From an uncultured Candidatus Saccharibacteria bacterium (GTDB lineage Bacteria; Patescibacteriota; Minisyncoccia; Phycocordibacterales; UBA2100), in the NCBI GenBank assembly GCA_964471165.1, contig CAYYEX010000002.1, positions 124,965 to 188,964 on the forward strand: a DNA stretch of 64,000 nucleotides, given 5' to 3'. Below, in pieces: positions 3,999-43,088 of the stretch. The notes under the pieces were generated by a model, which saw only the letters and a list, made by a program, of their open reading frames with translations, had not been told where the DNA came from and did not search any database. A program made the translations under genes and the position numbers. The first letter of the stretch is position 1. Each line of letters opens with the position of its first letter.

Positions 3999-6900
3999 GT
4001 GCGAATTGCTGATGCGCCCGAGAGGGCGCATCATTGCGTTATGCGCCGTAAGGACATCGGGGATTTTCTTAATGCTGAACGCAAAATTTCTCCACTCACT
4101 GCGTTTTCACTCCTTGTCGTAGCAGGCTTCGTTGCCGGCTCTTTGCAGCTCGTTGCACCGCGCACCACCGACACGATTGCAATCACCGCGACAGCTGTGC
4201 AGGCGCGCGAGTCGATGACTGCGGCAACAGCTGCTGCCCCGGCGACCACAAATTCTCTCAATACCAGTTTTCCGAAAGATTGTGAGACGGCGATTAAAGG
4301 TGCGCTCGGAAAGAGCCAAAGTAACGGTACGTACTCGGTAGACAAAGGGAGTTCGGGGAAAATGGATTCCTGTTTTGCTGCAGTGCTCGCCGACCCAGTT
4401 CGTTCAGTACCGAGCCAAAACCCCGCCGACTATAAATGTGTCGGCCGAAGTGGAAAAGTCACCATTACACCGATACAAGCTTCTTCGGTCATGGACGCGG
4501 ATAAAAGCGTACCGGCGGGCAGCTGCAAGGTGAAGGTTTGTCAGCCGTTTCAGTACATGGAGGGGCAATACATGAAGGTAAATGAAAACTGCAGCGAAGC
4601 GAAACAAATGAAACCGGGCGAGAGTACGACCGGCACACCGGCTATCCCCGAAGGAAAGTTACCGGCCCCATATTCAGTTCCCTCGACACCTACTCCAACA
4701 GGTTCACAAACACCAACACCGAATGCACCGGGAGCTGGAGGAGCGGGCGAAAGTGGGGGAGGTGGTGCACCAGGCTCAACACCCGCAACTCCAGACCCAA
4801 CAAAGCCAAACACCGACGCAGACGAAATTAAAAAAATCCAAATCGGAACTGATGCAGATGGCAAGCCCATTTACGCTGCGGAAGAAGTGGCAAAACCCGA
4901 CGCGGTCGTACCGAAAGGCGATGCAGCAAATATTGGAGCCGGTAGCGGTAGTTGCGAACGCGGCGGCACATGTGCGGGCGACGAGCGCTCACAAACTGCA
5001 CCTGGTACTGCCAGCTGCGAGCGCGGTGGCACCTGCATCGGCGACGAACGTTCTCAAACAAGTACATTCAGCAGCTGCGAACGTGGGGGCACGTGTGCGG
5101 GCGACGACCGCTCACAGCCTGCACCTGCAACGGGCAGCTGCGAACGTGGTGGCACATGCCCTGGTGACGAACGCTCGCAACCTGCCGTGTGGGGCCCTAC
5201 AAATTGCGAACGCGGTGGCACGTGTGCAGGTGACGACCGCTCTGAACCAGCTCGGCTTGAGCCTGCTACACGAGGGTTAAATGGCAGATGGACTAGTGCA
5301 GAAGACGAAATGCGCCAACTCGAAAATCCTACGTTGCGCGACCAACCGACCAATGATGACGATATGCGTCGAGCCGAAAATCCAACACTACGCGATCAAC
5401 CCACAAATGATGATGATATGCGTCGAGCCGAGGATCCGAAATTGCGCGAACCCGCAAAAACAGATGCTCCTTACAGCGATGTAACAGATGCTTCCAATTC
5501 ACCAATTGATTGCGACAGTAAAAGCATGTGCCGCTCCTATCCCAAGGAGCAAAAAGATATTGAGACACTACAGAAGGCGGGATTCACCTGCACAAGCGAC
5601 CAGGGGAGTTCGGCATACTGCTACAAAGATAATTCGAAAGGCCCCGCAGTTACTGATCCAAAAACGAAACCAGGTGGTTGTGAACGCGGCGGCACCTGTC
5701 CAGGCGACGACCGCTCCAAGCCGGCTCCGACGCCAGCACCAGCTCCAGCACCGGCGCCTGGGCCGGGTGGTGGTGGAGGCGGAAGCGGTGGTGGTGGAAC
5801 CGGGGGAGGAGGCTCAGGTGGTGGAGCAGGGGGACTTGGCTCGCTCCTGAGTGGTCTCATGAAGGGCATGGGAGGAGGCTCACCAGCACAGCAGCCACAG
5901 CAACCGGCACAGCAATGCCAAACCGACCCACAGGCATATGCTCGGCAGCAAGAGCAGTACAACTATCAGTTGCAACAGTACAACTACCAGCTCCAGCAAT
6001 ACAACTATCAACAGCAGCAAAATTCTCAGTACGGCCAATCGTCGTATGCAAGCGCACCTGTGCCACCACGACCGTGTTCACAGGGTGGAGCAGGGCAGTG
6101 CCCTGCAATGCCCGCCCAGCCAAATGCGTCGGCCTGTCCGAACGGCACGTGGCGACAAATGACCACCACGCTTGGTTCAGGTTCGGTCTGTCCAGTTTGG
6201 CAGTGTGTAGTCGGAACAACGCCAACAGCACAACTCACGTGTCAGCCGGGAGTCGCAGAAGACGGAACGAAGGTCACACTTACATATTCATGCACAAACT
6301 CGCTTATGAGCACGGGCTACGGATTTGTAACAGGTGGGGCAACATCGGGTTCAACAAGCACGATAATTGTTAATCCACCGGCAAATGCAGGGGGAATAAA
6401 TTATGCGCTCAAGTGTGAGAATGGAAGCGCTTCGGCTGGCGCACAGTGTCAGGTACAAATCGCAAAAGTATCGATTTCCCTAAAGGCCTCACCAGAGGTA
6501 ACGCGAATCGGTGACAAGGCGCTCATTGGGTGGGTAACAACAGGCATGGAATCATGTGTAGTTTCGAGCCCCGACCAGCAAGACTTTACGGACCGCAATG
6601 CCAACAACAAGCGCACATCCGGTATTGCAACCACATCCCCAATCACCAGTACGTCTGACTTCTATCTCAACTGCGTTACCCTCACGGGTAGTACGCGCGA
6701 GGAAATGGTAACAGTGGAGGCGTACCAGCCGGGCACGGTTACCACCTCGATTGAAAACCGTACAAATGTGCAACGGGGACAGGTAGCAACTATTCAGTGG
6801 AGCTTCCCAGATGCTCCTGATGTTTCTGCGGTTGCGCTCTGGCTCTTCAGTGTCGAAGACCAAAAAAGTGTTGCACTCATTGTGGGACACAAAGCAAAGA

Positions 6901-7121
6901 CGGGTAGCTACACCTGGAATCTACCGGAAGAGAGCGAGCCATGTAATTCGTCGTCATCACTTGTTTGCGGAACCGATTTGATTCCAGGACGCACATACCA
7001 AGTTCTTGCGTCGCTCTACACGCCGCCGAATGCCGGACTCGGAGAGTTTGGCGATTCAAGCCTCCCTGCGCCACAGTTTCTGGATAGCCCAACAACGAGG
7101 AGTTTCAAGATTCAGCAGTAA
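3999..7121 (+). CDS. large membrane-anchored/secreted repeat protein (8x Cys-containing CERGGTCxGD[DE]RS repeats, Pro/Gly linkers, Q/N/Y-rich low-complexity segment)
   Basis: N-terminal TM (LTAFSLLVVAGFVAGSLQLVAP); alternative start ATG 4041; tandem 14-aa Cys repeats; 2.5x NPTLRDQPTNDDDMRRAE; GGGGSGGGG linker; QQYNYQLQQYNYQ region; no recognisable enzymatic motif. Confidence 0.7.
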   Translation: MRIADAPERAHHCVMRRKDIGDFLNAERKISPLTAFSLLVVAGFVAGSLQLVAPRTTDTIAITATAVQARESMTAATAAAPATTNSLNTSFPKDCETAIKGALGKSQSNGTYSVDKGSSGKMDSCFAAVLADPVRSVPSQNPADYKCVGRSGKVTITPIQASSVMDADKSVPAGSCKVKVCQPFQYMEGQYMKVNENCSEAKQMKPGESTTGTPAIPEGKLPAPYSVPSTPTPTGSQTPTPNAPGAGGAGESGGGGAPGSTPATPDPTKPNTDADEIKKIQIGTDADGKPIYAAEEVAKPDAVVPKGDAANIGAGSGSCERGGTCAGDERSQTAPGTASCERGGTCIGDERSQTSTFSSCERGGTCAGDDRSQPAPATGSCERGGTCPGDERSQPAVWGPTNCERGGTCAGDDRSEPARLEPATRGLNGRWTSAEDEMRQLENPTLRDQPTNDDDMRRAENPTLRDQPTNDDDMRRAEDPKLREPAKTDAPYSDVTDASNSPIDCDSKSMCRSYPKEQKDIETLQKAGFTCTSDQGSSAYCYKDNSKGPAVTDPKTKPGGCERGGTCPGDDRSKPAPTPAPAPAPAPGPGGGGGGSGGGGTGGGGSGGGAGGLGSLLSGLMKGMGGGSPAQQPQQPAQQCQTDPQAYARQQEQYNYQLQQYNYQLQQYNYQQQQNSQYGQSSYASAPVPPRPCSQGGAGQCPAMPAQPNASACPNGTWRQMTTTLGSGSVCPVWQCVVGTTPTAQLTCQPGVAEDGTKVTLTYSCTNSLMSTGYGFVTGGATSGSTSTIIVNPPANAGGINYALKCENGSASAGAQCQVQIAKVSISLKASPEVTRIGDKALIGWVTTGMESCVVSSPDQQDFTDRNANNKRTSGIATTSPITSTSDFYLNCVTLTGSTREEMVTVEAYQPGTVTTSIENRTNVQRGQVATIQWSFPDAPDVSAVALWLFSVEDQKSVALIVGHKAKTGSYTWNLPEESEPCNSSSSLVCGTDLIPGRTYQVLASLYTPPNAGLGEFGDSSLPAPQFLDSPTTRSFKIQQ
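4945..5460 (+). repeat. intragenic tandem repeats (eight ~57-60 nt units encoding SCERGGTCxGDxRSQ, then 2.5 units of a 54-nt NPTLRDQPTNDDDMRRAE repeat)
   Basis: repeated tgcgaacg(c/t)gg(c/t)ggcac(a/c/g)tg... units visible directly in the DNA. Confidence 0.75.
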
Positions 7122-8706: not shown

Positions 8707-9203
8707 ATACCGAAGAACTCGAGTACCTTGTGTGCGATAGGTTCTTTCATGTGAACTTCTTCGGCATGCTCTTTCATGTATGCGCGAACGAGTCCAGGTT
8801 CAATATCGTGGATTGGAATAATCAGGTTTGGCGACATAAATTTAATTGTGTCGATGAGGAGGAGTGGATGACCGTCGTGTTCGTCTTCTACCCAGAACGA
8901 AATGATTTCGTGATAGTGGTGCAGTGTTTTGTCCACGCGGACACCTTTGGCAGAGATTTCAAATGTTGATACTTCTGGTGCGTGCCGTGCAAGTAACGCA
9001 ATCGTGAATGCTGCCACTATAATGAGCACTCCAAAAAGTACATCGCTCAGGATTATCGCAGTGAGGGCAGCGCACGCTGCTGCAATTCCAAGTGCCCAAA
9101 ACCACTCAGAGCCACGCTCAATGTGTTCGTGCTCGTAGGCATTCCACCGGAGAACTACAGTGTGGTCCTGCATAGATGAAATTATTGTAGCATCGCGCAA
9201 CAT
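8703..9203 (-). CDS. hypothetical membrane protein
   Basis: two TM helices (WFWALGIAAACAALTAIILSDVLFGVLIIVAAFTIALL); start could also be internal ATG at 9173. Confidence 0.45.
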   Translation of the reverse strand: MLRDATIISSMQDHTVVLRWNAYEHEHIERGSEWFWALGIAAACAALTAIILSDVLFGVLIIVAAFTIALLARHAPEVSTFEISAKGVRVDKTLHHYHEIISFWVEDEHDGHPLLLIDTIKFMSPNLIIPIHDIEPGLVRAYMKEHAEEVHMKEPIAHKVLEFFGI

Positions 9204-9239
9204 GCACGAACGTCATTGTCGTGCTACAACATGCTCTAC

Positions 9240-9324
9240 GGAGGGATGGCAGAGTGGTCTATCGCACCTGTCTTGAAAACAGGAGTGCCGCAAGGTACCG
9301 AGAGTTCGAATCTCTCTCCCTCCG
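9240..9324 (+). tRNA. tRNA-Ser (anticodon TGA)
   Basis: acceptor GGAGGGA/TCCCTCC, anticodon stem CCTGT/ACAGG with loop CTTGAAA, long variable arm, T-arm GAGAG-TTCGAAT-CTCTC, discriminator G. Confidence 0.85.
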
Positions 9325-9378
9325 CAACGAATTCATAGTTCGGACCACACCGAACACGCGCTCACTGCATCAGTTAAG

Positions 9379-9927
9379 ATGTGGTGTATGAGTGTATCCG
9401 CCCAAATGCGCACTGCAGCTATATGGGGAATCTGTGCGATTGCCGCGCAAATCGTGTTTTTAACCATACAGGGTGTTTTACAGGGTTCTTTTAGCCCGAT
9501 GTTTAAATTCTTCTGGTTCGAGCTCGCCGTCTTTCTTACGGCGCTGTCCTTCACAATACATATGTGGGGGTACAGTCATCTCGGACAGAAAGTTCAAAAC
9601 GTGTGGCTAGTCTTCAGTGCGCAGGGGCTCGCATTCTTTTTTGCAGTCATCGGTGGTTTTGTGATGGTCGCAGGAGTTATGAATGGTTTTTTCGCGGGTT
9701 CGGGTATACACCTGCTCAACGGTATACAGGGCATCGTTTTTATCCTCTTCTGCATCCCGGCGCTTACGTTCGTTATTTCGCTTATCTCGACTTATAAAAG
9801 AGTCGGCATTCTATCTGTTCTTTCTGTCGGGGTGGTGGTATTTCCTGTCGCAATGGCAATTCCGTGGCTGCTTATCCTTTTCCTCATTCCGTCCGTGATT
9901 CTTCTGTTTCGCGAGTCAAAGTACTAA
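9379..9927 (+). CDS. hypothetical polytopic membrane protein
   Basis: 5-6 predicted TM helices, no motif recognised. Confidence 0.5.
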   Translation: MWCMSVSAQMRTAAIWGICAIAAQIVFLTIQGVLQGSFSPMFKFFWFELAVFLTALSFTIHMWGYSHLGQKVQNVWLVFSAQGLAFFFAVIGGFVMVAGVMNGFFAGSGIHLLNGIQGIVFILFCIPALTFVISLISTYKRVGILSVLSVGVVVFPVAMAIPWLLILFLIPSVILLFRESKY

Positions 9928-9965
9928 GCAACCGCAAAGACCTCGGAAGTGATAGAGTATTCCAA

Positions 9966-10973
9966 ATGGCAATTTCAAAGACCCGGGGCTTTATGCCGGT
10001 CCTTGCGGCTCTCATTGGGAACGCGCTCGTAACGGTCTTTAAGACGATTGTGGCACTCAGCTCAGGCTCGAGCTCAATGTTTTCCGAAGCAATTCACAGC
10101 TTTGCAGACACTGCGAATCAGGCACTGCTCCTAATCGGCGTTACGCGCTCCCGAAGAAAACCGACAACCGAGTTTGGTTATGGTTTTGGTAACGAGCGCT
10201 TTTTCTGGGCACTCATTTCTGCGTGCGGAATATTTTTCGTTGGGGCAGGAGTTACGATGTATCACGGCATCGAGGCAATCAGGCATCCAGAACCAATTTC
10301 TATTGGCGTTTCAACGTTTGCGGTGCTTATCGCCGCCTTCGTGATTGAGGCGCTCACGCTGTGGGTCGCGTTACGCTCACTCGCAAATCACTACCCCAAG
10401 AAGTCTTGGGCACAGCGTATCGAACTTGCAGACCCGTCGACTCTCGCGGTTTGTTTAGAGGATAGTGTTGCAGTGATTGGCGTTGTGATTGCAGCGATAT
10501 CCATATCCGTTTCGTACATGACGGGCAATCCGGTCTGGGACGCAATTGGCTCAATCATTATTGCGACACTTCTTGGACTCGTTGCGGTCACACTCATTGC
10601 AAAAAATCGCTCCTATCTTATCGGTCGCTCCATTCCGGACGACGACAAAGAAGCAATCATGGATGTGCTTCGTGCGGAGCCTGCAATAGAACGCGTTATC
10701 GACTTCAAGTCGACCGTGCTCGATATTGGCGTGTATCGCGTGAAGTTCGAGGTCGAGTTTAATGGGGCGGCACTCATGAATGAGGCGTACCAGCAGGAAT
10801 CGCTCTTGTCCGAGTTCGACAATATCTCAAACGACTACGAAGCGTTCAAACGCTTCTGTGTTTGGTATGCCGATCGCATCCCGCGCATGATGGGGAAGAA
10901 AATCGATGAAATCGAGTCACGTGTCAGAGATGCATGCCCCGAAGCCCGCTATATCGACATTGAAATCAACTAA
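9966..10973 (+). CDS. cation diffusion facilitator (CDF) family metal efflux transporter
   Basis: FSEAIHSFADTANQALLLIG, six TM helices followed by cytoplasmic C-terminal domain; start at MAISKTRG. Confidence 0.8.
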   Translation: MAISKTRGFMPVLAALIGNALVTVFKTIVALSSGSSSMFSEAIHSFADTANQALLLIGVTRSRRKPTTEFGYGFGNERFFWALISACGIFFVGAGVTMYHGIEAIRHPEPISIGVSTFAVLIAAFVIEALTLWVALRSLANHYPKKSWAQRIELADPSTLAVCLEDSVAVIGVVIAAISISVSYMTGNPVWDAIGSIIIATLLGLVAVTLIAKNRSYLIGRSIPDDDKEAIMDVLRAEPAIERVIDFKSTVLDIGVYRVKFEVEFNGAALMNEAYQQESLLSEFDNISNDYEAFKRFCVWYADRIPRMMGKKIDEIESRVRDACPEARYIDIEIN

Positions 10974-11033
10974 TCGAGTGTCATACAACACGGGCGAGTG
11001 GATGTTTCCCGGACACCCGCGTACACTGTGCCG

Positions 11034-11378
11034 ATGAAGTCTTTTTCTGGCACGGTCATTCGCGGCTCACAACGAGCAGCGTCTCTCGGATATCCCACCA
11101 TCAATCTTGCCGTCGACAACATGAATACCGATGGCATTTTTGCTGCGATGGTTGTTATCGACGGCCGCGAGCGCATGGCGGCAGCCTTTGCCGACCCACT
11201 GCGCGGCCTCCTCGAGGCGTACATTCTTGATGTAACTGAGGATTTTTACGGGAGGGAGGCGAAAATCGTGCTCCACAAGAAAATACGTAGAAACCAACAC
11301 TTCGCTACCGACGAACTCCTCAAAGCGGCAATCGCTTCCGATGTGGAAAATGTTCGGGCATACTTCACACAATTATGA
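11034..11378 (+). CDS. monofunctional riboflavin kinase (flavokinase, bacterial/eukaryotic RFK type)
   Basis: GTVIRGSQRAASLGYPTINL matches the G.V..G...G..LG(F/Y)PTxN flavokinase motif; ~115 aa. Confidence 0.75.
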   Translation: MKSFSGTVIRGSQRAASLGYPTINLAVDNMNTDGIFAAMVVIDGRERMAAAFADPLRGLLEAYILDVTEDFYGREAKIVLHKKIRRNQHFATDELLKAAIASDVENVRAYFTQL

Positions 11379-12337
11379 CGCCGGTAGCTCGCTCGCTCGC
11401 GTTTTTCGGCCCACTCCTTGTGTTTGCTGCCGCAATGCTCTGGGCTACCGACGCCCCGTTCCGTACTCATCTCACAACTGATTTATCATCAAGCTTTATT
11501 GTGCTTGCCGAACACGCCGTGAATCTGTTGTTCGTGATTCCGATTCTTTTCTTCAACTGGCGAGAGCTCGGAAAGTTTACTAAACGTGAGTGGGGAGCAG
11601 TGCTTGTAATTGCAGTCGGCGGCTCCGCCCTTGCTTCCATTGCGTTTACTGAGTCGTTCAAATATGTAAACCCATCGGTTGCGATACTTTTGCAAAAAGT
11701 ACAACCACTTATCGCGATTTCACTTGCAGCACTTCTCCTGAAAGAGACAATGCATAAATATTTCTGGATATGGGCTGCGATTGCTATGGGGGGCGCGTAT
11801 CTCATCAGCTTTCCGTCTATTCGTCCGCAGCTCTACGACGGCGAAGTGTTTAACCCGAACACACTTGGCGTACTCTTCGCGCTCCTGGCCGCAGTACTTT
11901 GGGGTGCTTCGACAGTGCTGGGGAAGTATGCGCTGCGCGTAAGTTCGTTCCAGATGCTCACCGCGCTTCGCTTCGGTATTGCATTTGTATTCTTGTTTTT
12001 TCTCGCCTCCACGCAAGACCAACTGCCACCATTTGCCGCGGTCACGTCTACCGATTGGCTTTTCATCGCTATCGTAGCGGCAGTATCCGGTGTGTTCTCC
12101 CTCTCCCTCTATTACTACGGTCTCCAATACACCAAGGCATCGATTGCCACACTTGCAGAGCTCGGGTTTCCGCTCGCTGCAGTTTTTGTAAACGCATATT
12201 TTATTGCGGGCAACGTACAGCCGGGGACATACTTCGGACTATTCTTAGGTCAATGGCTCGGAACAGCACTGCTTCTTTTCTCGCTCTACATGCTTAGCCG
12301 TGAGAACAGCGCGGAAGCTGCAGTTGCTGTCGCATGA
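11375..12337 (+). CDS. EamA/DMT-superfamily 10-TM transporter
   Basis: two EamA-like halves, 10 TM helices; embedded in flavin gene cluster (RibN-type riboflavin importers belong to this superfamily). Confidence 0.7.
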   Translation: MTPVARSLAFFGPLLVFAAAMLWATDAPFRTHLTTDLSSSFIVLAEHAVNLLFVIPILFFNWRELGKFTKREWGAVLVIAVGGSALASIAFTESFKYVNPSVAILLQKVQPLIAISLAALLLKETMHKYFWIWAAIAMGGAYLISFPSIRPQLYDGEVFNPNTLGVLFALLAAVLWGASTVLGKYALRVSSFQMLTALRFGIAFVFLFFLASTQDQLPPFAAVTSTDWLFIAIVAAVSGVFSLSLYYYGLQYTKASIATLAELGFPLAAVFVNAYFIAGNVQPGTYFGLFLGQWLGTALLLFSLYMLSRENSAEAAVAVA

Positions 12338-13074
12338 AGTTGATTAGTCTGAATCTGTGGTGCGGTGCGGTGAATGGACCGTTGTTGGATTTTCTAAAAA
12401 TACACCAGGACGTGGATTTTTTTCTGTTTCAAGAAATGCTCGACAATGCGACTGCTAAAACAAATTGGGACAACCGCGGAAACCCACACTTGTTTGCCGA
12501 TGTACGCGAGTTACTTGTAAACCATCGTGCATATTTTGCTCCCGCAGAAAGTGGTGAATACGGACTCGCTGGTTTTATTGCAAAAAAACACACGCTCACC
12601 GCAACGGGGGATGTATTCATTCATCGGTATAAGGATGCGATGGAAAATGACGATGCTCGTCTGCTCGGTAGGAACCTTCAGTATTTCGATGTGGTGGTGG
12701 ACGGCCGCCCGGTTTCACTCTTAAACTTTCACGGGCTTTGGACCGGCGTAGACAAACAAGATACCCTCGAGCGAGTTGCACAATCAAAAAAGATTTCTGA
12801 ATTTGTGTCCAAGCAGACAGGGGACTTTATTCTCACGGGAGATTTCAACTTGATGCCCGAGACGGAAAGTGTGCGGGTACTCGAGAGCATGAATGTTCGC
12901 AATTTGATACGGGACTACCACGTGCTGACAACACGTACTTCTTTTTATACAAAACCTGAAAAGTTTGCCGACTACATGTTCGTCTCGCCAGGAGTCACTG
13001 TAAAGGATTTCCGAATACTTCCAGACGAGGTTTCCGATCACGCGGCAATGTATCTAGAATTCGATTTGCAATAG
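12334..13074 (+). CDS. endonuclease/exonuclease/phosphatase (EEP) family protein
   Basis: LTGDFNLMPETE and C-terminal SDHAAMYLEFD motifs. Confidence 0.7.
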   Translation: MKLISLNLWCGAVNGPLLDFLKIHQDVDFFLFQEMLDNATAKTNWDNRGNPHLFADVRELLVNHRAYFAPAESGEYGLAGFIAKKHTLTATGDVFIHRYKDAMENDDARLLGRNLQYFDVVVDGRPVSLLNFHGLWTGVDKQDTLERVAQSKKISEFVSKQTGDFILTGDFNLMPETESVRVLESMNVRNLIRDYHVLTTRTSFYTKPEKFADYMFVSPGVTVKDFRILPDEVSDHAAMYLEFDLQ

Positions 13075-13078
13075 ACCT

Positions 13079-13720
13079 ATGTTCACGGGAATTATTGAAA
13101 AGCTGGCACGTGTGAAAGTGACCAAAAGACAGAACAAGGGGATTCGTGTTCAAATCGAGAAGCCTCGCGGATGGAAGCTCGTCATCGGCCAAAGCATTTC
13201 GGTTGATGGTGTTTGTTCAACTGTTGTTGCGCTGTCCGCAGGAGGCTTCGATGTCGTCTATATGCCCGAGACACTTCTGAAAACAACAGCCCGTTCGATT
13301 GCAAAAGACTCGCGAGTGAATCTTGAACGTTCGTTGGTATATGGAGCGCGTATTGAGGGGCATATTGTGCAAGGACACGTTGACGCGCAGAGTAAAATCA
13401 CGAGCATCGTTCAACAAGGGTCGTCGCGACTCCTCACGTTTCCGATTCCTGTCGCGTATAGGCGGTTTGTAACCCTCCATGGGTCAATCACTGTGCATGG
13501 TGTTTCGTTAACCGTTGCCCGTCTCAAGACGGGATTGTGCACGGTGGCGCTTATTCCGCACACACTCTCGCATACAAATCTCGGTCATCTGGCGAAAGGG
13601 GACGCTGTAAATATCGAGGTCGATTACCTAGCTCGATATGGCATTGCTGCGCCTTGGCAGAGTGGTACAGTACTCCGCAATGCAACGAAAGGAATACAAA
13701 AAAGAGCGCGCAGTCGGTAA
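13079..13720 (+). CDS. ribE: riboflavin synthase (alpha subunit)
   Basis: MFTGIIEKLARV start, two lumazine-binding repeats (GQSISVDGVCSTVV / GSITVHGVSLTV), ~210 aa. Confidence 0.85.
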   Translation: MFTGIIEKLARVKVTKRQNKGIRVQIEKPRGWKLVIGQSISVDGVCSTVVALSAGGFDVVYMPETLLKTTARSIAKDSRVNLERSLVYGARIEGHIVQGHVDAQSKITSIVQQGSSRLLTFPIPVAYRRFVTLHGSITVHGVSLTVARLKTGLCTVALIPHTLSHTNLGHLAKGDAVNIEVDYLARYGIAAPWQSGTVLRNATKGIQKRARSR

Positions 13721-14141
13721 CGGCTCCAAACTCAAAGTCGCACTCGTTGTGTCGCGTTTCAATAGCGACATCACCGACTCCATGCTTGAGGCAGCACGCG
13801 AGACGCTTCGCGCATGGGGAGTGACTGCGCGAAACACCACCACTGTGTTTGTTCCCGGAAGCTTCGAGATTCCCGTCGCCTGCCAAAAAGTAATCGCAAA
13901 AACAAAACCACACGCAATCATTGCACTCGGTTGTATCATTCAGGGTGATACAAAACACGACCACTACATTGCCTCGGCAGTTTCCCATGGACTCATGAGA
14001 CTTTCTCTCGACCACAAAATTCCAATTTCCTTTGGAATATTAACTACCAACAACTTAGCGCAAGCGAAAGCCCGTTCTCGGGGAAAGGAAAATAAAGGCC
14101 ACGAAGCTGCGCTTGCCGTATTGGAAACGGCTCTTTTGTAA
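13680..14141 (+). CDS. ribH: 6,7-dimethyl-8-ribityllumazine synthase
   Basis: KVALVVSRFNSDITDSMLEAA...VFVPGSFEIPVA...AIIALGCIIQGDTKHDHYIA; start assigned to internal ATG 13680 to limit overlap with ribE. Confidence 0.85.
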   Translation: MQRKEYKKERAVGNGSKLKVALVVSRFNSDITDSMLEAARETLRAWGVTARNTTTVFVPGSFEIPVACQKVIAKTKPHAIIALGCIIQGDTKHDHYIASAVSHGLMRLSLDHKIPISFGILTTNNLAQAKARSRGKENKGHEAALAVLETALL

Positions 14142-14146
14142 TAACG

Positions 14147-14560
14147 ATGAAGCGCATAATGGTGTTCGGTACGTTCGATATTCTTCACGAGGGACACCTC
14201 AACTTTTTTAAACAGGCCCGTTCGCTTGCCGCAGACCCGCAACTCATAGTTTCTATTGCGCGCGACGCGTCGGCGGAGCGTATCAAGGGAGACAGTCCGA
14301 AAAATAACGAATTGTTTCGGATGAAAGAAGTGGAAGCATCCCCACTTGTTGACGAGGTCGTGATGGGGGACAGGGACGGGTTTATAAAACACATCATCTT
14401 GGCTCGACCGGATATCATTGCTCTTGGGTACGACCAAAAGAGTGAGTATGTGACAGAGTTGCAGGCGGAGCTTGATAAAGCAGGGCTCCCGACGCGCATT
14501 GTTCGACTCAGGCCGTACAAGCCCCATATCTACAAAACATCGATACTTAAGAACCAATAG
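14147..14560 (+). CDS. archaeal RibL-type FMN adenylyltransferase (FAD synthetase), cytidylyltransferase fold
   Basis: GTFDILHEGH nucleotidyltransferase motif plus IVSIARDASAERIKGDSPKNNELFRMKEVEASPLVDEVVMG and ARPDIIALGYDQ, RIVRLRPYK closely paralleling M. jannaschii RibL; genomic context flavin genes. Confidence 0.7.
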   Translation: MKRIMVFGTFDILHEGHLNFFKQARSLAADPQLIVSIARDASAERIKGDSPKNNELFRMKEVEASPLVDEVVMGDRDGFIKHIILARPDIIALGYDQKSEYVTELQAELDKAGLPTRIVRLRPYKPHIYKTSILKNQ

Positions 14561-14574
14561 GGCATACTGCCAAT

Positions 14575-15216
14575 ATGAAGATTACCAAGTACGGCCATTG
14601 CTGCCTGCTCGTCGAAGAAAAGGGCGTGCGGCTTCTCACCGACCCGGGAGCATTCACGGCCGATACTCACACAAACCTTACGGCCCTTGATGTTATTTTG
14701 TATACACACGAGCACGCCGACCACTTCCATCTCGACTCCCTGAGGCTCCTGCGGCAGAACAATCCTGGCGCAATTGTTATTTGCAACGAAGGTGTGAGCT
14801 CATTTTTGGAAGCAGAGGGAATACCACATACAAAAATCATAAACGATACTCACGAATACAACGGGGTAACCATTACAGGCATTTCGGGCGAGCATGAGGA
14901 AATCTATCCAACAATTCCGCGCATTCAAAACACGGGGTATCTTATTGCACAGAAACTGTGGTACCCGGGAGACTCGTTCGTCAATCCGGGCATGCCCGTA
15001 GATGTGCTTGCGCTCCCTGTTGCTGGTCCGTGGCTAAAACTTTCCGAAGCATTAGATTATGCGGTTATGCTCAAGCCGCAAAAAGTTTTATACGTTCATG
15101 ACTGGATTTTGAGTCCGTCGGGACAGAGTGTGACGGAGCGCGTGGCAAAAAGCATCCTTTCTGCGTATCCTATTTCTTTGTTTAGTCTGACTCTCGGTGA
15201 GACATACGATTTTTAA
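14575..15216 (+). CDS. MBL-fold metallo-hydrolase
   Basis: YTHEHADHFH metal-binding motif. Confidence 0.7.
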   Translation: MKITKYGHCCLLVEEKGVRLLTDPGAFTADTHTNLTALDVILYTHEHADHFHLDSLRLLRQNNPGAIVICNEGVSSFLEAEGIPHTKIINDTHEYNGVTITGISGEHEEIYPTIPRIQNTGYLIAQKLWYPGDSFVNPGMPVDVLALPVAGPWLKLSEALDYAVMLKPQKVLYVHDWILSPSGQSVTERVAKSILSAYPISLFSLTLGETYDF

Positions 15217-15217
15217 A

Positions 15218-15610
15218 ATGAAATTTCTTGGAATAGATTACGGGGCAAAGAATATCGGCATCGCGGTGTCTGACGCCAATGGAACAATTGCATTTCCACG
15301 CGAAACCATTGCGAACATGCGTGGAGTAATTGGTTCTATACAAAAGATAATTGAGGAAGAAAAGATTGGATTCGTAGTTGTGGGGGATACGCGGAGTTAT
15401 GGTGGTATCCCGAACCCAATCACATTAAAGGTAAAAGATTTTGTCGAGGATCTAAAGAAGGTGCTCGATGTGCCAATAGCCTCGTCGTGGGAAGCGGGGA
15501 GCACGATGGAGGCAAATCGATACGACCCTGAGGGCGCTCACAATGATGCTGCCGCGGCGGCCATTATCCTGCAACGCTATTTGGATATCAAAACGGGAAG
15601 TGTAGACTAG
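15218..15610 (+). CDS. ruvX: Holliday junction resolvase-like YqgF/RuvX
   Basis: MKFLGIDYGAKNIGIAVSD RNase H-like N-terminus typical of YqgF. Confidence 0.8.
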   Translation: MKFLGIDYGAKNIGIAVSDANGTIAFPRETIANMRGVIGSIQKIIEEEKIGFVVVGDTRSYGGIPNPITLKVKDFVEDLKKVLDVPIASSWEAGSTMEANRYDPEGAHNDAAAAAIILQRYLDIKTGSVD

Positions 15611-15617
15611 ACGAACT

Positions 15618-15998
15618 ATGAATGAACCAATCGAACCAAAGCCGCTCCCTGAGGTCGCCGTTGAAAACAAAGGGGAAATATCGTACGACGACTTTGCGAA
15701 GCTTGATATCCGTGTTGGCACAGTAATTTCAGTTGAAAAAATCGAAAACGCGGACAAGTTGCTCAAATGCACGATTGATTTTGGTGATTTTGGGCAGCGA
15801 ACAATCGTTTCCGGTATTGCTGAATGGAAAACCCCCGATGATCTGGTTGGTAAACAACTCCCGTACATCGTGAATTTGGCACCACGTATGCTGCGCGGTG
15901 TTGAAAGCCAGGGGATGCTCATAGCGGCGTCAGACGAAAACGGCGTTGCGCTCCTTCATCCTGAGCGTGAAGTCCCGAAAGGCACAAAATTGAAGTAA
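15618..15998 (+). CDS. stand-alone tRNA-binding protein (Trbp111/CsaA-like OB-fold, equivalent to MetRS C-terminal domain)
   Basis: KLDIRVGTVISVEKIENADKLLKCTIDFGDFGQRTIVSGIAEW. Confidence 0.75.
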   Translation: MNEPIEPKPLPEVAVENKGEISYDDFAKLDIRVGTVISVEKIENADKLLKCTIDFGDFGQRTIVSGIAEWKTPDDLVGKQLPYIVNLAPRMLRGVESQGMLIAASDENGVALLHPEREVPKGTKLK

Positions 15999-22809: not shown

Positions 22810-23244
22810 ATGAAAAAGGGGATTGATTTTATAGGCGTCACCGTGTCGTACCTGTGTTTTGATCGCGACGGACGAATCCTGCTCGGGAAGCGCAGCAAAA
22901 ATGCTCGCGACGAACACGGTCGGTGGGACAACGGCGGTGGGGGACAGGAATTTGGCGATTCCATAGAAACAACCTTATTTAAGGAGCTCAAGGAAGAATA
23001 TTGCGTCGATCCGCTCGGGTACGAGTTTCTCGGTGTGCACGACGTTTTCCGTGAACACAACGGCATCCCGACGCATTGGGTCTGTGTCATTTATAAAGTC
23101 CTCGTCGACCCAGCGCAGGTACAGAACGGGGAACCGCACAAAATGGACGAGATAGCCTGGTTCACGCTCGATAACTTGCCCGAGCCGTTGCATTCTGACC
23201 TGCCGAATACCCTCGAGCGCTATAAGGCACATCTGCCCGGCTGA
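22810..23244 (+). CDS. NUDIX hydrolase
   Basis: Nudix box GGGGQEFGDSIETTLFKELKEEYC (GX5EX7REUXEEXGU). Confidence 0.85.
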   Translation: MKKGIDFIGVTVSYLCFDRDGRILLGKRSKNARDEHGRWDNGGGGQEFGDSIETTLFKELKEEYCVDPLGYEFLGVHDVFREHNGIPTHWVCVIYKVLVDPAQVQNGEPHKMDEIAWFTLDNLPEPLHSDLPNTLERYKAHLPG

Positions 23245-33211: not shown

Positions 33212-33817
33212 ATGGTGCCACTTCCCGCGATATATGAACGAGCCAAAATTGGCTCGATACAGTCGAAAAACGGTGAATCGTTCGATATTGTGATAGGGCT
33301 CGATACAGCACTTGTTGATCAGCTTATTGCATACTCAGTCGATGCAAGCGACGTTGATTTACAAAACAACACGTCAGACCGAAAGCGCTTTGGTGAGGGC
33401 TCATACGAAGAATGGTTCAACAAAGAGCGCACGCCATATGCATTGGTCAGTAATGACGGAACACTCGCCGCGCTCGCATGGTTCGGGCCAAAGCCAATCG
33501 GTCGCAAGTCATTGCGCTATCTGAGCGAGGCGGAGCTAAGAGAAGAGTATTCGCAGGCCAAAGGGGATGCCCATACAATTGTGTATCGGTCGTATAATCC
33601 ATTTCGAGGCCAGGGACTTATGTCGGGGTTCATGCGCTTCGCAATAGACGACTATCGAGCACGACATCCTGGCGCGAAGCTCTGGGCGGGAGTGAGCACG
33701 CACAATCAAGCGAGTGTCGCGCTGGCTACCAAGCTGGGATTTGTATATTCAGAGGAATACTCCGATCCGGAACAAGACTGGGCACTTATGTTTGAAAATG
33801 ATGTATGGCGCGCGTAA
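33212..33817 (+). CDS. GNAT-family N-acetyltransferase (tentative)
   Basis: C-terminal acetyl-CoA-binding-like RGQGLMSGFMRFAIDD...LWAGVSTHNQASVALATKLGF. Confidence 0.4.
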   Translation: MVPLPAIYERAKIGSIQSKNGESFDIVIGLDTALVDQLIAYSVDASDVDLQNNTSDRKRFGEGSYEEWFNKERTPYALVSNDGTLAALAWFGPKPIGRKSLRYLSEAELREEYSQAKGDAHTIVYRSYNPFRGQGLMSGFMRFAIDDYRARHPGAKLWAGVSTHNQASVALATKLGFVYSEEYSDPEQDWALMFENDVWRA

Positions 33818-34956
33818 AACTTAGCGAATATTCAGCAAAGAAGATTCTACTCGGGGACACCTACACTGGTGTGAGCCTGCGCTCCGGCGCTCTTTCGATT
33901 CCGGCAGGACGATGGGTTGCAAAAGTGGACCAGGGCGTGAAAAAGCGTTTCAAGCAAGGCTTGGTCGTCGTGGATAAAAGTGAAAGTGAAATCAAGCAAG
34001 CGATTGAACAGTGGGAGCAGAAAGGTTTCTCCCAATTTATTCTTGATCCGCTCGTCGCACATGATTCAAAAGATGCCCGGTATATTTCATTTGAACGCGT
34101 GCGTGAGGGGATTCGTGTTTTGTTTTCGAGAGATGGAGGTATTGATATAGAAGAGCACCCCGAAGCGGTCACGCAGTATTTGATGAAAGTTGAGAGCGAT
34201 ATAGCCCACGTGGCTTCCGAAACTGGTGTTCCTGAATCGTTTCTCTCGCGTGTGTACCGCGCGTTTCAAAAAGAATTTTTTGCCTTTCTCGAAATCAATC
34301 CGCTCCTCGTTATAAACGGTACTGCAGAGTTATTGGACGCTGCCGCATTGGTTGACAGCGCAGGAGAGTTCTTCGTGCGAGATTCCTGGACGGGGGATGA
34401 TGTCATCAAACAGAGAGCGAAACATCCCGCCGAAACGAGAGTTGAAAAACTTGCTGCAACTACCCCCGCATCTCTCAAGCTTTCGGTTATCAATCCAGAT
34501 GGAGCGCTTTTTTTTCTGCTCTCCGGCGGTGGAGGCTCCATCGTGATTGCTGACGAAGTTCAGCTCCGAGGTGCGGGGGCGCTTTTGGCAAACTATGGCG
34601 AATATAGCGGGGGGCCGACACGCGAGGAAACCTATTTGTACGCAAAAGAAATTCTTGGACTCCTCATTGATTCCTCGGCAAAGAAAAAAGCACTGGTAAT
34701 CGCGGGTGGGGTGGCGAACTTTACCGATGTTAAAAAAACATTTCTCGGCATCATTGACGCGCTTGCCGAGGTGGCACCCAAGCTGCGCGCAGCTGGTGTG
34801 CGCGTGTTCGTGCGACGCGGTGGTCCCAACGAAGCCGCTGGCCTCAAACTCATGCAGGACTTTCTCGAAAAAGAAGCCCTCCAGGGTGCTGTGTATGGTT
34901 CGGACACCGTTATTACGCGCGCAGTGGAAGACGCGATTACATTTATACAGGTATGA
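33805..34956 (+). CDS. aclB: ATP-citrate lyase beta subunit (ATP-grasp, SucC-like)
   Basis: near-collinear matches to human ACLY N-terminal half: FAFLEINPLLV, ASLKLSVINPDGALFFLLSGGGGSIVIADE, ANYGEYSGGPTREETYLYAKEILGLL, LVIAGGVANFTDVKKTF, VFVRRGGPNEAAGLKLM. Confidence 0.9.
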   Translation: MARVKLSEYSAKKILLGDTYTGVSLRSGALSIPAGRWVAKVDQGVKKRFKQGLVVVDKSESEIKQAIEQWEQKGFSQFILDPLVAHDSKDARYISFERVREGIRVLFSRDGGIDIEEHPEAVTQYLMKVESDIAHVASETGVPESFLSRVYRAFQKEFFAFLEINPLLVINGTAELLDAAALVDSAGEFFVRDSWTGDDVIKQRAKHPAETRVEKLAATTPASLKLSVINPDGALFFLLSGGGGSIVIADEVQLRGAGALLANYGEYSGGPTREETYLYAKEILGLLIDSSAKKKALVIAGGVANFTDVKKTFLGIIDALAEVAPKLRAAGVRVFVRRGGPNEAAGLKLMQDFLEKEALQGAVYGSDTVITRAVEDAITFIQV

Positions 34957-36743
34957 CGATTCTTGAACGCATTCGAAACGGAGAGGACGGCATCCTCGTC
35001 ATAGGGAATCACCCAGGTATTGTGCAATCAATTCTCGATTTTGATGCCCTCTCTGGGAAGGGGCGCGCATCTGTCGTTGGCATTATTGCAGGCACGCGAA
35101 AAGCCCAAAAGTTTTTCTTTGGGGGCACAGAAGTGTTGATTCCGTGTTTTTCTAACGTCGCAAAGATTCCGAAAGACGTTGGCGGGAGAGTTAAGTGGAT
35201 GCTCAACGCGCAGTCGGGGCGTCGCTCATTCTCCTCGACGGTGGGATTTTTTGAAGCATTTCCCGATGCGCTTGGCGGGCACCTGTTTGCAGAAAACATA
35301 CCCGAAAGTCATGCAACGGAACTCATTGCACGTTTCGGTAACCGCTACCTGATTGCAGGGCCATCTGGGGTGGGATTGCTTGTGTCTCATTGTCTAAAAC
35401 TTGGCGCTATTGGCGGAACCGATGTTGCACAGATTATGGCGGGAAAGCTCGCTACGGAGGGTTCTGTGGCAGTTGTGTCCACCTCAGGTGGTATGACCAA
35501 CGAGCTCATCCGCGCCGTGTCACTTGCAGGCAAGCGGGTCTCATTTTCACTCTCAATAGGCGGAGACCGATTTCCTATCACGTCGCTCTCGCAGGTGCTC
35601 TCGCTTGCCGAAGAAGACGCAGCCACGAAAGCAATCGTGTATTTCGGCGAGCTCGGCGGGTCAGATGAGTACGAGATTGTTGAGCTTCTCAAAGCGGGAA
35701 AACTGACCAAGCCGATTATTTGTTACGTCGCAGGGGTAATCGACGAGGCGTTCGACGAACGAATGCAGTTCGGTCATGCCAAGGCGCTGGTTGCCCATAA
35801 AGATGAAAGTGCGCGCGCCAAACGTGAAGCGCTCAACGCCGCTGGTGCAATTGCGCCGGAATCATTCCCGCTTTTTCTCAATGCGCTAGCTGACCTGCCG
35901 CTGCCAGAGATTCGTGATACCGTCATTGATACAAAAGCATTTATGGACAGAAAGCCAAGTATTCTCTCATCACGAAAAATTGTCGACCTCGATACGGTTC
36001 CCGTATTTGTGAAGGACGGGGTACTTGTTACTCAGCCACAAAATGCATTTGCAGCTGCAGCGCTCAAGGCATTGCTGGGGCGCGAAGTTTCCGCCGAGAC
36101 TGCTGCGTTTGTCGAAAACATTTTTGAACTCCTCATCGACCACGGTGGTCACGTCTCCGGTGCCGTAAACACCATGGTCACCGCACGCGCGGGCAAAGAC
36201 ATGGTCTCATCCCTCGCCGCAGGGCTCCTCACGGTAGGTCCCCGTTTCGGGGGAGCGGTGAACGAAGCTGCGCGAACTTGGCATGATGGCGTAGTCTCAG
36301 GTGTTGAAGCATCGGTCTATGTGGAGGCGCAGAACAAAGCAGGGAAGCTCCTCGCGGGCATCGGGCATCGCAAGTATCGTGTTGGCATTCCTGACCCGCG
36401 CGTGTCCGCGCTTTCTGAGTTTGCGGCGCTGCTTACAAAACACCCACATTACGACTTTGCGCGAAGCATTGAACTGGTCACAACAGCAAAGAATGGAAAT
36501 CTCATTTTAAATGTGGATGGCATTATGGCCGCGCTCTTGCTCGATTTCCTCGCTGAAAAGGATGGCCTCAGTAGTCAGGAGATTACAGAGCTCCTGGATG
36601 CGGAGTTTTTCAATGCGTTGTTTATCATCCCGCGCTCAGTTGGATTCATTGCACACTTCATCGAACAAAAAAGAAACGACGAAGGACTGTTCCGTTTACC
36701 AGACGATTTACTGTTTGAACGTGATAACGAAGCAGGGGAATAA
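34953..36743 (+). CDS. aclA: ATP-citrate lyase alpha subunit (CoA-binding, phosphohistidine and citrate-synthase-like domains)
   Basis: STSGGMTNELIRAV, catalytic His motif FGHAKAL, ELLIDHGGHVSGAVNTMVTARAGKDMVSSLAAGLLTVGPRFGGA, GIGHRKYRVGIPDPRVSAL, LILNVDGIMAALLLDFL, GFIAHFIEQKR matching ACLY/AclA. Confidence 0.9.
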   Translation: MTILERIRNGEDGILVIGNHPGIVQSILDFDALSGKGRASVVGIIAGTRKAQKFFFGGTEVLIPCFSNVAKIPKDVGGRVKWMLNAQSGRRSFSSTVGFFEAFPDALGGHLFAENIPESHATELIARFGNRYLIAGPSGVGLLVSHCLKLGAIGGTDVAQIMAGKLATEGSVAVVSTSGGMTNELIRAVSLAGKRVSFSLSIGGDRFPITSLSQVLSLAEEDAATKAIVYFGELGGSDEYEIVELLKAGKLTKPIICYVAGVIDEAFDERMQFGHAKALVAHKDESARAKREALNAAGAIAPESFPLFLNALADLPLPEIRDTVIDTKAFMDRKPSILSSRKIVDLDTVPVFVKDGVLVTQPQNAFAAAALKALLGREVSAETAAFVENIFELLIDHGGHVSGAVNTMVTARAGKDMVSSLAAGLLTVGPRFGGAVNEAARTWHDGVVSGVEASVYVEAQNKAGKLLAGIGHRKYRVGIPDPRVSALSEFAALLTKHPHYDFARSIELVTTAKNGNLILNVDGIMAALLLDFLAEKDGLSSQEITELLDAEFFNALFIIPRSVGFIAHFIEQKRNDEGLFRLPDDLLFERDNEAGE

Positions 36744-41645: not shown

Positions 41646-43088
41646 TTGGCTGGTATGGGAAAGAATTTTTATCTAACGACTACGCTACCGTATGTGAATG
41701 CAGACCCGCATATTGGCTTTGCGCTTGAGTGCGTGCAGGCAGATGCGATTGTTCGCTACCGACGCCTTGTAGGAGACACGGTCTTTTTCTCCACAGGGAC
41801 CGACGAGCACGGACAAAAGATTTTCCAGAAAGCCAAAGAAGAAGGCCGTGATGTACAAGAATACGTTGATTACTTTGCCGGGCAATTTCGCAAATTGCAG
41901 CGTTCACTCAATCTCTCGTACGATGCATTCATTCGTACAACCGATGAGCGGCATGTGCATGCGGCACAAGAGCTGTGGAAACGATGTGCCGAAGCGGGCG
42001 ACATTTATAAAAAGAAATACAAAGGACTCTACTGTGTGGGCGACGAGGCCTATGTGAAAGATGCTGATTTGGTCGACGGCAAATGCCCAAATCATCCAAA
42101 CATGGAGCTTGTAGAAATAGAGGAGGAGAACTATTTCTTTCGGTTGAGTGCATATCAAGAGAAAATACTCGCGTACTTGAATCAAGCGGGGGTCATTGTG
42201 CCTGAATGGCGCCGCGCAGAAGCCATCAAGTTTGTGGAGGGCGGACTGGAGGATTTCAGTATTTCTCGCGAAACGTCCCGCATGAGCTGGGGAATACCGG
42301 TACCAGGCGACGACGCACAGGTTATGTATGTATGGTTCGATGCGCTTACCAACTACATCTCTACGCTTGGCTGGCCAGATGACACCGAAGGATTCTATAA
42401 AACATTCTGGGAAAACGGCGAAACGCTTCAGGTTGCAGGCAAGGACCAGGTACGGTTCCAGTCGATTATGTGGCAGGCGATGCTTATGTCGGGAGGACTC
42501 ACGACAACCGGGCGCGTGCTCTACCACGGGTTCATTACGAGCGGGGGACAGAAGATGTCGAAAAGCCTCGGCAATGTCATTGAACCGTACGCGCTTATCG
42601 ATGAGTACGGCACCGATGCGGTGCGCTACTTTCTGCTGCGCCACATCCACCCATTCGATGACAGCGACTTCACGCTGGAGCGTTTCAAAGAAGCCTACAA
42701 TGCCGACCTCGCCAATGGTATTGGCAATGTGACCGCGCGCATCATGACGCTTGCCGAAAAGAATTTGGACGCAGCAGTTGCCCGACCCGAGGCAGTAGGG
42801 TTTGCCCCTGAATACACTACAGCGCTTGAGGCGTACGATTTCAATCGAGTATGCAGCTACATTATGGAGCGTGTCCAGACTCTAGACCGGAAGATTTCTG
42901 AAACTGAGCCGTTTAAACTCGTGAAGACCGACCCTGAAGCGGGGAAAGCACTCATTTCAGAGCTCGCGACCGAGTTGTATGGTATCGCTCGACTATTGAA
43001 TCCAATTATGCCGACCACGTGCGACGCGATAAAAGCTGCGATTCTCGCAAACAAAAAGCCCGAGAACCTATTTGCACGCAAGGAATAA
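41646..43088 (+). CDS. metG: methionyl-tRNA synthetase (short form lacking C-terminal tRNA-binding domain)
   Basis: HIGH motif PYVNADPHIGFAL, KMSKS motif KMSKSLGNV, Zn knuckle CVGDEAY...CPNH. Confidence 0.9.
   Translation: MAGMGKNFYLTTTLPYVNADPHIGFALECVQADAIVRYRRLVGDTVFFSTGTDEHGQKIFQKAKEEGRDVQEYVDYFAGQFRKLQRSLNLSYDAFIRTTDERHVHAAQELWKRCAEAGDIYKKKYKGLYCVGDEAYVKDADLVDGKCPNHPNMELVEIEEENYFFRLSAYQEKILAYLNQAGVIVPEWRRAEAIKFVEGGLEDFSISRETSRMSWGIPVPGDDAQVMYVWFDALTNYISTLGWPDDTEGFYKTFWENGETLQVAGKDQVRFQSIMWQAMLMSGGLTTTGRVLYHGFITSGGQKMSKSLGNVIEPYALIDEYGTDAVRYFLLRHIHPFDDSDFTLERFKEAYNADLANGIGNVTARIMTLAEKNLDAAVARPEAVGFAPEYTTALEAYDFNRVCSYIMERVQTLDRKISETEPFKLVKTDPEAGKALISELATELYGIARLLNPIMPTTCDAIKAAILANKKPENLFARKE

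Follow-up and report, generated by a model that had tools for sequence, protein, structure and literature searches.

The locus described here raises the question of how bacteria of the Candidate Phyla Radiation (CPR; also called Patescibacteria) supply themselves with FMN (flavin mononucleotide) and FAD (flavin adenine dinucleotide). A survey of Parcubacteria published in 2015 by Nelson and Stegen found no riboflavin synthesis genes, no ribK/ribL, no ribF and no riboflavin transporter; the flavoenzymes MurB and TrxB are encoded, and the origin of FMN and FAD was left open (PMC4508563). We analyzed a stretch of 64 kb of contig CAYYEX010000002.1 (hereafter the window); in ENA it lies on the 298,281-bp metagenomic contig k141_321895 (ERZ27247837), window position 1 falling at about position 230,863. 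Within it is a cluster of six genes (Table 1): those for a riboflavin kinase (RFK), an EamA-type transporter of the drug/metabolite transporter (DMT) superfamily, a hydrolase of the endonuclease/exonuclease/phosphatase (EEP) family, riboflavin synthase (RibE), 6,7-dimethyl-8-ribityllumazine synthase (RibH) and a nucleotidyltransferase resembling archaeal RibL. Relatives were examined to 10 kb on either side.

These genes likely constitute a flavin-cofactor operon of the Kaiserbacteria/Paceibacteria lineage of the CPR. RFK, a stand-alone ATP-type kinase, would convert riboflavin to FMN, and the RibL-type nucleotidyltransferase would form FAD from FMN and ATP, the two enzymes, encoded at the fixed ends of the operon, jointly taking the place of bifunctional RibF. 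The EamA/DMT permease would import riboflavin, or a close flavin, for RFK. RibH and RibE would make riboflavin from 5-amino-6-ribitylaminouracil and 3,4-dihydroxy-2-butanone 4-phosphate, abbreviated DHBP, substrates which may come from early pathway genes elsewhere in the genome (somewhat more likely) or from the host; the EEP hydrolase would be a passenger. The enzymatic and transport activities named here are all predicted.

Gene calls and the Pfam and NCBIfam thresholds place all six genes, on the forward strand, where the preliminary description had put them, and each passes a curated family threshold wherever one exists. One boundary has to be corrected: the kinase start at 11034 stands, but position 10998, from which the cluster had been counted, is an in-frame upstream GTG. 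The RFK/EamA and EamA/EEP junctions are ATGA overlaps, RibE and RibH overlap by 41 nt, and the remaining spacers measure 1-14 nt; the six genes therefore form a single, tightly packed operon, which continues into genes for a metallo-beta-lactamase (MBL)-fold hydrolase, RuvX and a tRNA-binding protein (tRNA_bind). The nearest relatives of the window proteins are found in metagenome-assembled genomes (MAGs) labelled Candidatus Kaiserbacteria, Paceibacterota, Parcubacteria or Nomurabacteria, which points to a CPR/Patescibacteria bacterium of a Kaiserbacteria/Paceibacteria-like lineage. The remainder of the window holds the housekeeping genes usual for CPR, namely those for aminoacyl-tRNA synthetases, RecA, FtsK, ribosomal proteins and type IV pili, along with large surface proteins.

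RFK carries the motifs GSQRAASLGYPTIN, LEAYILD and DFYG, the latter two of which align with the kinase modules of RibF; the PTAN motif that had been ascribed to it actually reads PTIN (GYPTINL), a PTAN variant. Its fold is that of the ATP-type flavokinases (PF01687) and not that of the archaeal CTP-dependent RibK. Models of RibF are matched only in their C-terminal kinase half (positions ~170-320), and when E. coli RibF is compared with the 64-kb window the sole matching open reading frame (ORF) is RFK, again through the kinase half. The N-terminal FAD_syn domain typical of RibF (PF06574) scored 18.9 bits, under its cut-off of 27. A bifunctional RibF was considered and ruled out, the kinase being 114 amino acids long with no FAD_syn domain fused to it. 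The same net chemistry is predicted as for the bacterial RibF, which combines an FMN adenylyltransferase with a kinase, and the window kinase corresponds by homology to RibF's C-terminal module; the window adenylyltransferase, in contrast, belongs to a different family of the same superfamily and is encoded separately.

Several independent tests identify the product of 14147-14560, as had been proposed from the sequence, as a probable RibL-type, that is archaeal-type, FAD synthase, closer to archaeal RibL than to TagD and other small cytidylyl- and adenylyltransferases. It is 40% identical over 131 amino acids (E 3e-25) to a Methanocaldococcus RibL ortholog, P0123. This ortholog was retrieved with a query which we take to be the RibL sequence of M. 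jannaschii; the query is 96-97% identical to Methanocaldococcus database proteins named FAD synthetase. Among structures in the PDB the best match by both sequence and profile is 3glv from Thermoplasma volcanium, with residues 1-135 aligned from end to end; in the profile search it scored 95.7 bits, compared to 43-46 for TagD and 39-45 for CCT. Since a hidden Markov model (HMM) of archaeal RibL gives 160 bits on 3glv, this structure can be placed in the RibL family. The same HMM gives 96 bits on the window protein. In the reverse comparison, with a profile built from the CPR family, archaeal RibLs obtain 73-103 bits, compared to 42.5 for E. coli HldE and 7 for RibF. An AlphaFold model of the protein (pLDDT 89) again has 3glv as its top structural match (E 4.8e-13, TM-scores 0.80/0.89, root-mean-square deviation 2.0 Å, 38% identity), with TagD, Fom1, HldC and CCT as runners-up at ~1e-8. 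The nucleotidyltransferase motif FGTFDILHEGH, which places this single-domain protein in the (H/T)xGH class, is unchanged in 31 homologs, and the 137-residue start at 14147 agrees with most of them. Several homologs are already labelled "FAD synthetase" or "FAD synthase" in JGI and UniProt/NCBI.

With its root placed on HldE, a neighbor-joining tree recovers the CPR proteins as a monophyletic clade (100/100 bootstraps) that groups with the archaeal RibLs. By the tests taken together the window protein does not cluster with glycerol-3-phosphate cytidylyltransferases, the outcome that was to have refuted the RibL call. The archaeal sequences, drawn from taxa other than DPANN, Asgard and TACK archaea, were monophyletic in 46/100 bootstraps, and the CPR RibLs may be either sister to the sampled archaeal RibLs or nested within them.

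The pairing of kinase and nucleotidyltransferase extends well beyond this genome. When a single genome of each GTDB species was scanned with a profile of the RibL-like family, relatives turned up in 326 species. The loci analyzed were the best 80 of these 326, all from CPR, plus loci obtained through exact-protein look-ups; the closest of the 80 is 72% identical, the window's own MAG standing outside the set. The genes occur in a conserved block in the order RFK-[variable slot]-RibL-[MBL]-RuvX-tRNA_bind-PilM. In the 55 informative loci, those with at least 3.5 kb of DNA upstream of RibL, the block contained RFK in 39, EamA in 20 (36%), RibE plus RibH in 18 (33%), MBL in four and EEP in one (2%). 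Downstream of RibL, RuvX is found in 73 and tRNA_bind in 57 of the 80 loci. The slot between RFK and RibL holds EamA, RibE and RibH, both, neither, or unrelated genes, and in the complete 859-kb Kaiserbacteria genome CP066682 it is empty, RFK and RibL overlapping by 4 bp. The RFK/RibL module is thus lineage-wide and not special to the source genome. A constant association of a kinase with a nucleotidyltransferase is what a split replacement of RibF would look like, and the proposal that a monofunctional kinase and a separate RibL-type FMN adenylyltransferase replace RibF fits both the family tests and this conserved pairing.

The EamA protein is matched by PF00892 in two stretches and would have about ten transmembrane helices. 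It is the best conserved gene product of the module, with a mean identity to the window protein of 70.6% compared to 60.8% for RibL at the same loci and ~49% for RFK, and it is 85-87% identical in genomes where RibL is 66-74% identical. Its best 120 homologs are all at least 64% identical and all from CPR. The gene is kept in the slot in two different orders, RFK-EamA-RibE-RibH-RibL and RFK-RibE-RibH-EamA-RibL, and one lineage carries it as an in-frame fusion with RibL. The fusion protein (P0303, 448 amino acids) lies in the context RFK-RibE-RibH-[EamA~RibL], and its identical sequence was recovered from a JGI metagenome and from an independent Logan assembly. The fusion implies that the C-terminus of the transporter would be cytoplasmic. 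EamA is about as frequent at loci with RibE and RibH (9/18) as at those without (11/21), and riboflavin, the substrate of RFK, would therefore fit better as its cargo than a substrate of RibH or RibE. Because of its conservation and its fusion to RibL, the EamA protein is a credible flavin importer, and this is its best reading, which we hold with moderate confidence. An EamA/DMT transporter does lie inside the cluster, as first noted, and the role suggested for it has gained circumstantial support from conservation, persistence in the slot and the fusion.

Two riboflavin importers of the DMT family are known, RibN, reported only in Proteobacteria, and ImpX, which is associated with an FMN riboswitch (PMC4418817). 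Like these, the window protein is a secondary transporter with two EamA domains that is genetically tied to flavin genes. It differs, as compared by description, in having no riboswitch, and the CPR EamA proteins make up a separate, tight subfamily. NCBIfam yielded only generic DMT matches to the protein, all under their cut-offs.

Several observations weigh against reading the locus as a flavin operon. RFK is not near RibL in 16 of the 55 informative loci. The slot holds unrelated genes in some species, including those for S-adenosylmethionine (SAM)-dependent methyltransferases, a TrmB-like regulator and an IMPase-family protein, and because of the methyltransferases and the regulator it can be said to behave as an insertion hot spot. 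The same block also ties RibL to the functionally unrelated RuvX, tRNA-binding protein and PilM. Position alone is for these reasons weak evidence of function, for EamA as for the others. The FMN riboswitch model RF00050 had no match in the window at its gathering threshold and none at E<=1 in positions 9000-15500. In the archaeal RibL HMM the gap between the window protein and E. coli HldE is only 25 bits (96 versus 71), and the two conserved cysteines of archaeal RibL are missing.

The cysteines need not be decisive. The window protein has none at all, and 118 of 120 CPR homologs have zero or one, compared to mostly two or three in the archaeal proteins. In M. jannaschii RibL the cysteine pair is associated with redox or air sensitivity. 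Entamoeba histolytica possesses a biochemically validated archaeal-type FAD synthase, EhFADS, which is 41% identical to M. jannaschii RibL, lacks the cysteine pair, and is encoded by a gene attributed to transfer from archaea (PMC11423594). The pair is dispensable for catalysis, since the Entamoeba enzyme is active without it, and its absence from the window protein leads us to predict an air-tolerant enzyme. Entamoeba also resembles the window in combining a conventional riboflavin kinase with a RibL-type enzyme free of the pair, at a similar level of identity (41% versus 40% here). Unlike the eukaryotic EhFADS, the CPR RibLs form their own monophyletic clade, occur in more than 300 bacterial species and are encoded in an operon with a transporter. 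The archaeal RibK plus RibL route of M. jannaschii likewise employs a separate kinase and an HxGH adenylyltransferase of about 140 amino acids, homologous to the window protein over its full length. There, however, the kinase is CTP-dependent, while that of the window is the ATP-type PF01687 enzyme of bacteria and eukaryotes; the window RibL is cysteine-free, its host is bacterial, and the two genes frame an operon.

One alternative would be that 14147-14560 encodes a different small nucleotidyltransferase, for example a glycerol-3-phosphate cytidylyltransferase or heptose-1-phosphate adenylyltransferase, whose adjacency to the kinase is mere synteny. The fold is common to TagD, HldC and CCT, the top NCBIfam scores are to rfaE_dom_II and the generic cyt_tran_rel domain, and the linkage to unrelated downstream genes shows that adjacency can be non-functional. 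Against this, both equivalog cut-offs are missed widely (60.3 bits versus 181.5 for TIGR02199, rfaE_dom_II, the model of HldE domain II and HldC; 34 versus 165.4 for TIGR01518, that of TagD). TagD, HldC, ECT and CCT match chiefly the N-terminal nucleotide-binding half, at lower scores; only RibL and 3glv are similar over the full length, the family-specific half at the C-terminus included. In a complete genome, moreover, RFK and this gene overlap, and elsewhere the protein is fused to the transporter of the operon. We regard this alternative as very improbable. An EEP enzyme acting as the 5-amino-6-ribitylaminouracil 5'-phosphate phosphatase, a non-HAD answer to the "missing phosphatase" of riboflavin synthesis, is also quite unlikely. 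EEP enzymes can act as sugar-phosphate or cofactor phosphatases, and the profile of the window protein shows weak similarity to the mannosyl-6-phosphatase 4c1r and to nocturnin. Within the RFK-RibL slot, EEP occurs only in clusters that also have RibE and RibH (the window, L014 and L007/L008); the genes there follow two different orders, and the EEP copies belong to two divergent lineages, which are 41% identical between the window and L007. Yet 21 of the 22 RibE/RibH-bearing GTDB species have no EEP in the slot (L014 is the one that does), a slot which in any case accumulates unrelated genes. None of 40 JGI metagenome loci carrying relatives of the protein (28-64% identity) has RFK, RibE, RibH or RibL beside it, the neighbors being RecA, MetRS/TatD and others, and the closest of these unlinked copies are 60-64% identical to the window protein, compared to 63% for the copy in the window-type cluster of L014.

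The EEP relatives are common CPR genes, and the window copy is probably a passenger, the earlier suggestion that it supplies the phosphatase step finding no comparative support. The protein has no signal peptide, its catalytic residues are intact, and N7, E34, H133, D170, N172, D235 and H236 vary little or not at all across 30 relatives, from which we surmise that it is probably an active phosphoesterase. Compared with the PDB as a single sequence it had no match; as a profile it gave weak, non-discriminating matches, including nucleases and sphingomyelinases as well as the two phosphatases named above. Known phosphatases for this step belong to the HAD family in E. coli, B. subtilis and plants, and to the histidine-family phosphatases and IMPases in Aquifex (PMC12051542). 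The window protein is like them a predicted phosphoesterase and is encoded beside RibE and RibH, but its fold (PF03372) is different and, unlike a phosphatase of this step, it does not co-occur consistently with rib genes. Slot ORFs that we had considered as divergent EEPs turned out to be the IMPase-family protein, the SAM-dependent methyltransferases and the TrmB-like regulator. The IMPase-family gene (motif WIMDPIDGT) occupies the RFK-RibL slot of a species that lacks RibE and RibH; in view of the part that an IMPase plays in Aquifex, its position may or may not be a coincidence.

RibE and RibH are ordinary members of their families. RibE also reaches 162 bits on TIGR00187 (cut-off 156.6) and is matched twice by PF00677 (Lum_binding), and RibH scores 167 bits on PF00885. 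In the Bacillus subtilis ribDG-E-AB-H-T operon the two genes are likewise part of one operon, but there they are accompanied by genes for a deaminase/reductase and for GTP cyclohydrolase II/DHBP synthase. Such genes are absent from the window operon and the 64 kb, and from ±10 kb in 22 species, and the window operon has no FMN riboswitch. In a full-sensitivity search of six-frame, stop-to-stop segments of the window with E. coli RibA, RibB and RibD, the best E value was 0.28, in line with the initial statement that RibH and RibE are the only synthesis genes and that the window lacks ribBA and ribD. Pfam scans of its less conspicuous ORFs revealed no rib domain, and no homolog of RibA, RibB or RibD (E <= 1e-5) lies within ±10 kb in the 80 species loci, including the 22 with RibE and RibH. 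Conserved genes of no assigned function upstream of RFK were considered as substitute early enzymes and rejected, none of the clustered ORFs being specific to RibE/RibH-bearing genomes. The identity of RibE and RibH to their window counterparts declines together with that of RibL, from 70-82% in the nearest species to ~50-55% in distant ones, which suggests that the pair has been long maintained, with repeated loss. Its distribution is patchy even among the closest relatives (present in L010 and L014; absent from L009, L011-L013 and L005). In L046 and L053, where RibE is normal, the sole RibH-like match is on the opposite strand and only 32-34% identical, and may represent either a divergent paralog or a spurious ORF.

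The source of the RibH substrates can be explained in two ways. RibH and RibE may simply end an ordinary de novo route, with ribA and ribB (or ribBA) and ribD elsewhere in the genome and the operon merely grouping late synthesis with cofactor conversion; to this we give close to an even chance. The substrates of RibH are specific to the pathway and labile, and we know of no organism that salvages them. The identity of RibE and RibH, tracking that of RibL, suggests vertical upkeep of working enzymes, the DNA examined covers 64 kb on the 298-kb contig and, in relatives, ±10 kb, and complete riboflavin pathways are mentioned for other CPR such as Gracilibacteria (PMC9166423). Set against this are the failure to find early genes in the window, or near RibE and RibH (±10 kb) in any of 22 GTDB species, despite strongly operonic genomes, the patchiness of the pair, and the Parcubacteria survey, which found no riboflavin genes (PMC4508563). 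The other explanation, the one first put forward, is that the early steps are truly lacking and that 6,7-dimethyl-8-ribityllumazine, or 5-amino-6-ribitylaminouracil (or its phosphate) plus dihydroxybutanone phosphate, is taken up from the host, with EamA as importer, EEP as phosphatase and RibH and RibE finishing riboflavin. The early genes are locally absent at every locus examined, and a transporter lies within the same operon. Dependence on a host and a small number of biosynthetic pathways are also presumed for CPR (PMC4508563), and the genes listed as exchanged only within Patescibacteria include ones for riboflavin biosynthesis (PMC12455944). EamA, on the other hand, is no commoner with RibE and RibH than without them and so does not behave as a dedicated partner, and the EEP gene is in the slot of a single RibE/RibH-bearing GTDB species, its relatives elsewhere never adjoining rib genes. 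Such salvage, furthermore, has to our knowledge neither a precedent nor a transporter. We therefore consider this explanation doubtful, and what probability remains beside the two falls to other possibilities. The broader proposition, that Kaiserbacteria-type CPR bearing RibH and RibE are truly devoid of ribA, ribB and ribD and finish intermediates made by a host or neighbor, with EamA importing a flavin or an intermediate, seems to us unlikely.

Table 1. Coordinates of the flavin operon, of other genes in the window, and of genes in related loci (prefixed by the locus).
Feature	Coordinates	Strand	Family match or size
Riboflavin kinase RFK, 114 aa	11034..11378	+	PF01687, 80.3 bits (cut-off 19.6)
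EamA/DMT-superfamily membrane transporter, 320 aa	11375..12337	+	PF00892, two domains, 127 bits
EEP-family hydrolase, 246 aa	12334..13074	+	PF03372, 45 bits
Riboflavin synthase RibE, 213 aa	13079..13720	+	NF006767, 201.1 bits (cut-off 155)
6,7-Dimethyl-8-ribityllumazine synthase RibH, 153 aa	13680..14141	+	TIGR00114, 146.5 bits (cut-off 84.6)
Predicted RibL-type FMN adenylyltransferase/FAD synthase, 137 aa	14147..14560	+	PF01467, 50 bits; motif FGTFDILHEGH
MBL-fold hydrolase, 213 aa, next operon gene after RibL	14575..15216	+	PF13483, 85.6 bits
RuvX and free-standing tRNA-binding domain protein	15218..15998	+	PF03652, PF01588
Free-standing tRNA-binding domain protein	15618-15998		metG_C_term, 117.6 bits
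CDF cation-efflux protein	9966-10973
NUDIX hydrolase	22810-23244
GNAT	33212-33817
ATP-citrate-lyase-like, first gene	33805-34956		Citrate_bind + ATP-grasp
ATP-citrate-lyase-like, second gene	34953-36743		CoA-ligase + citrate-synthase C-terminal domain
Methionyl-tRNA synthetase	41646-43088		480 aa
Large predicted surface protein	54455-57913
PaaX central/Cas2-like domain protein	59061-59624	-	PF20803, 75 bits
Large predicted surface protein	59685-63293
Large ORF	3999-7121		1040 aa
EamA-RibL fusion P0303	L134:6001-7347; L135:5503-6849		448 aa
Slot methyltransferases/TrmB-like regulator, examples	L066:766-1551; L083:2513-3292; L039:8779-9924; L072/L074:9249-10004
IMPase-family protein in slot	L035:8783-9562		motif WIMDPIDGT
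Vut_1	L005:5096-5785		PF02592

Around the operon, scans for promoters and terminators gave nothing exceeding the shuffled expectation. The MBL-fold hydrolase follows RibL in only nine of 80 relatives and is probably unrelated to flavins, and RuvX and tRNA_bind are a conserved downstream synteny anchor outside flavin function. The tRNA-binding protein directly after RuvX is a homolog of the C-terminal domain that is missing from the window's methionyl-tRNA synthetase. Upstream, the gene for a CDF cation-efflux protein occupies the position held in the closest relatives (L005, and also L010 and L014) by Vut_1, a "vitamin uptake transporter" or YhhQ-like gene oriented divergently from RFK. A NUDIX hydrolase, of a family in which some enzymes hydrolyze FAD, is encoded downstream of the flavin operon at a distance of about 8 kb. 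Farther away lies an ATP-citrate-lyase-like gene pair, preceded by a GNAT gene, which is unusual in a metabolically reduced CPR genome. A PaaX central/Cas2-like domain protein is encoded between two very large predicted surface proteins. The 1040-residue ORF near the start of the window has no Pfam match and lies in a stretch of strong AT skew (0.23); a large ORF is also found at the equivalent syntenic place in relatives.

In the literature on riboflavin in CPR, Patescibacteria, Parcubacteria and Kaiserbacteria we found no description of an RFK/RibL operon, of its transporter, or of an orphan RibE/RibH pair in genomes of the Kaiserbacteria type. The enzymes of the operon all belong to known families, and the combination of a conventional RFK with a cysteine-free archaeal-type FAD synthase has a characterized precedent in Entamoeba. 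What the operon offers is a concrete answer to how FMN and FAD may be supplied in a large CPR lineage, with relatives in 326 GTDB species, and a conserved DMT permease, backed by a natural fusion to RibL, as a candidate for the missing importer. The presence of RibH and RibE in about one third of the species, with no early genes nearby, leaves a single genuine puzzle, namely where the substrates of RibH come from. If these were indeed obtained as intermediates from the host or neighbors, salvage of riboflavin intermediates would be seen here for the first time, and a defined metabolic hand-off would link an episymbiont to its host.

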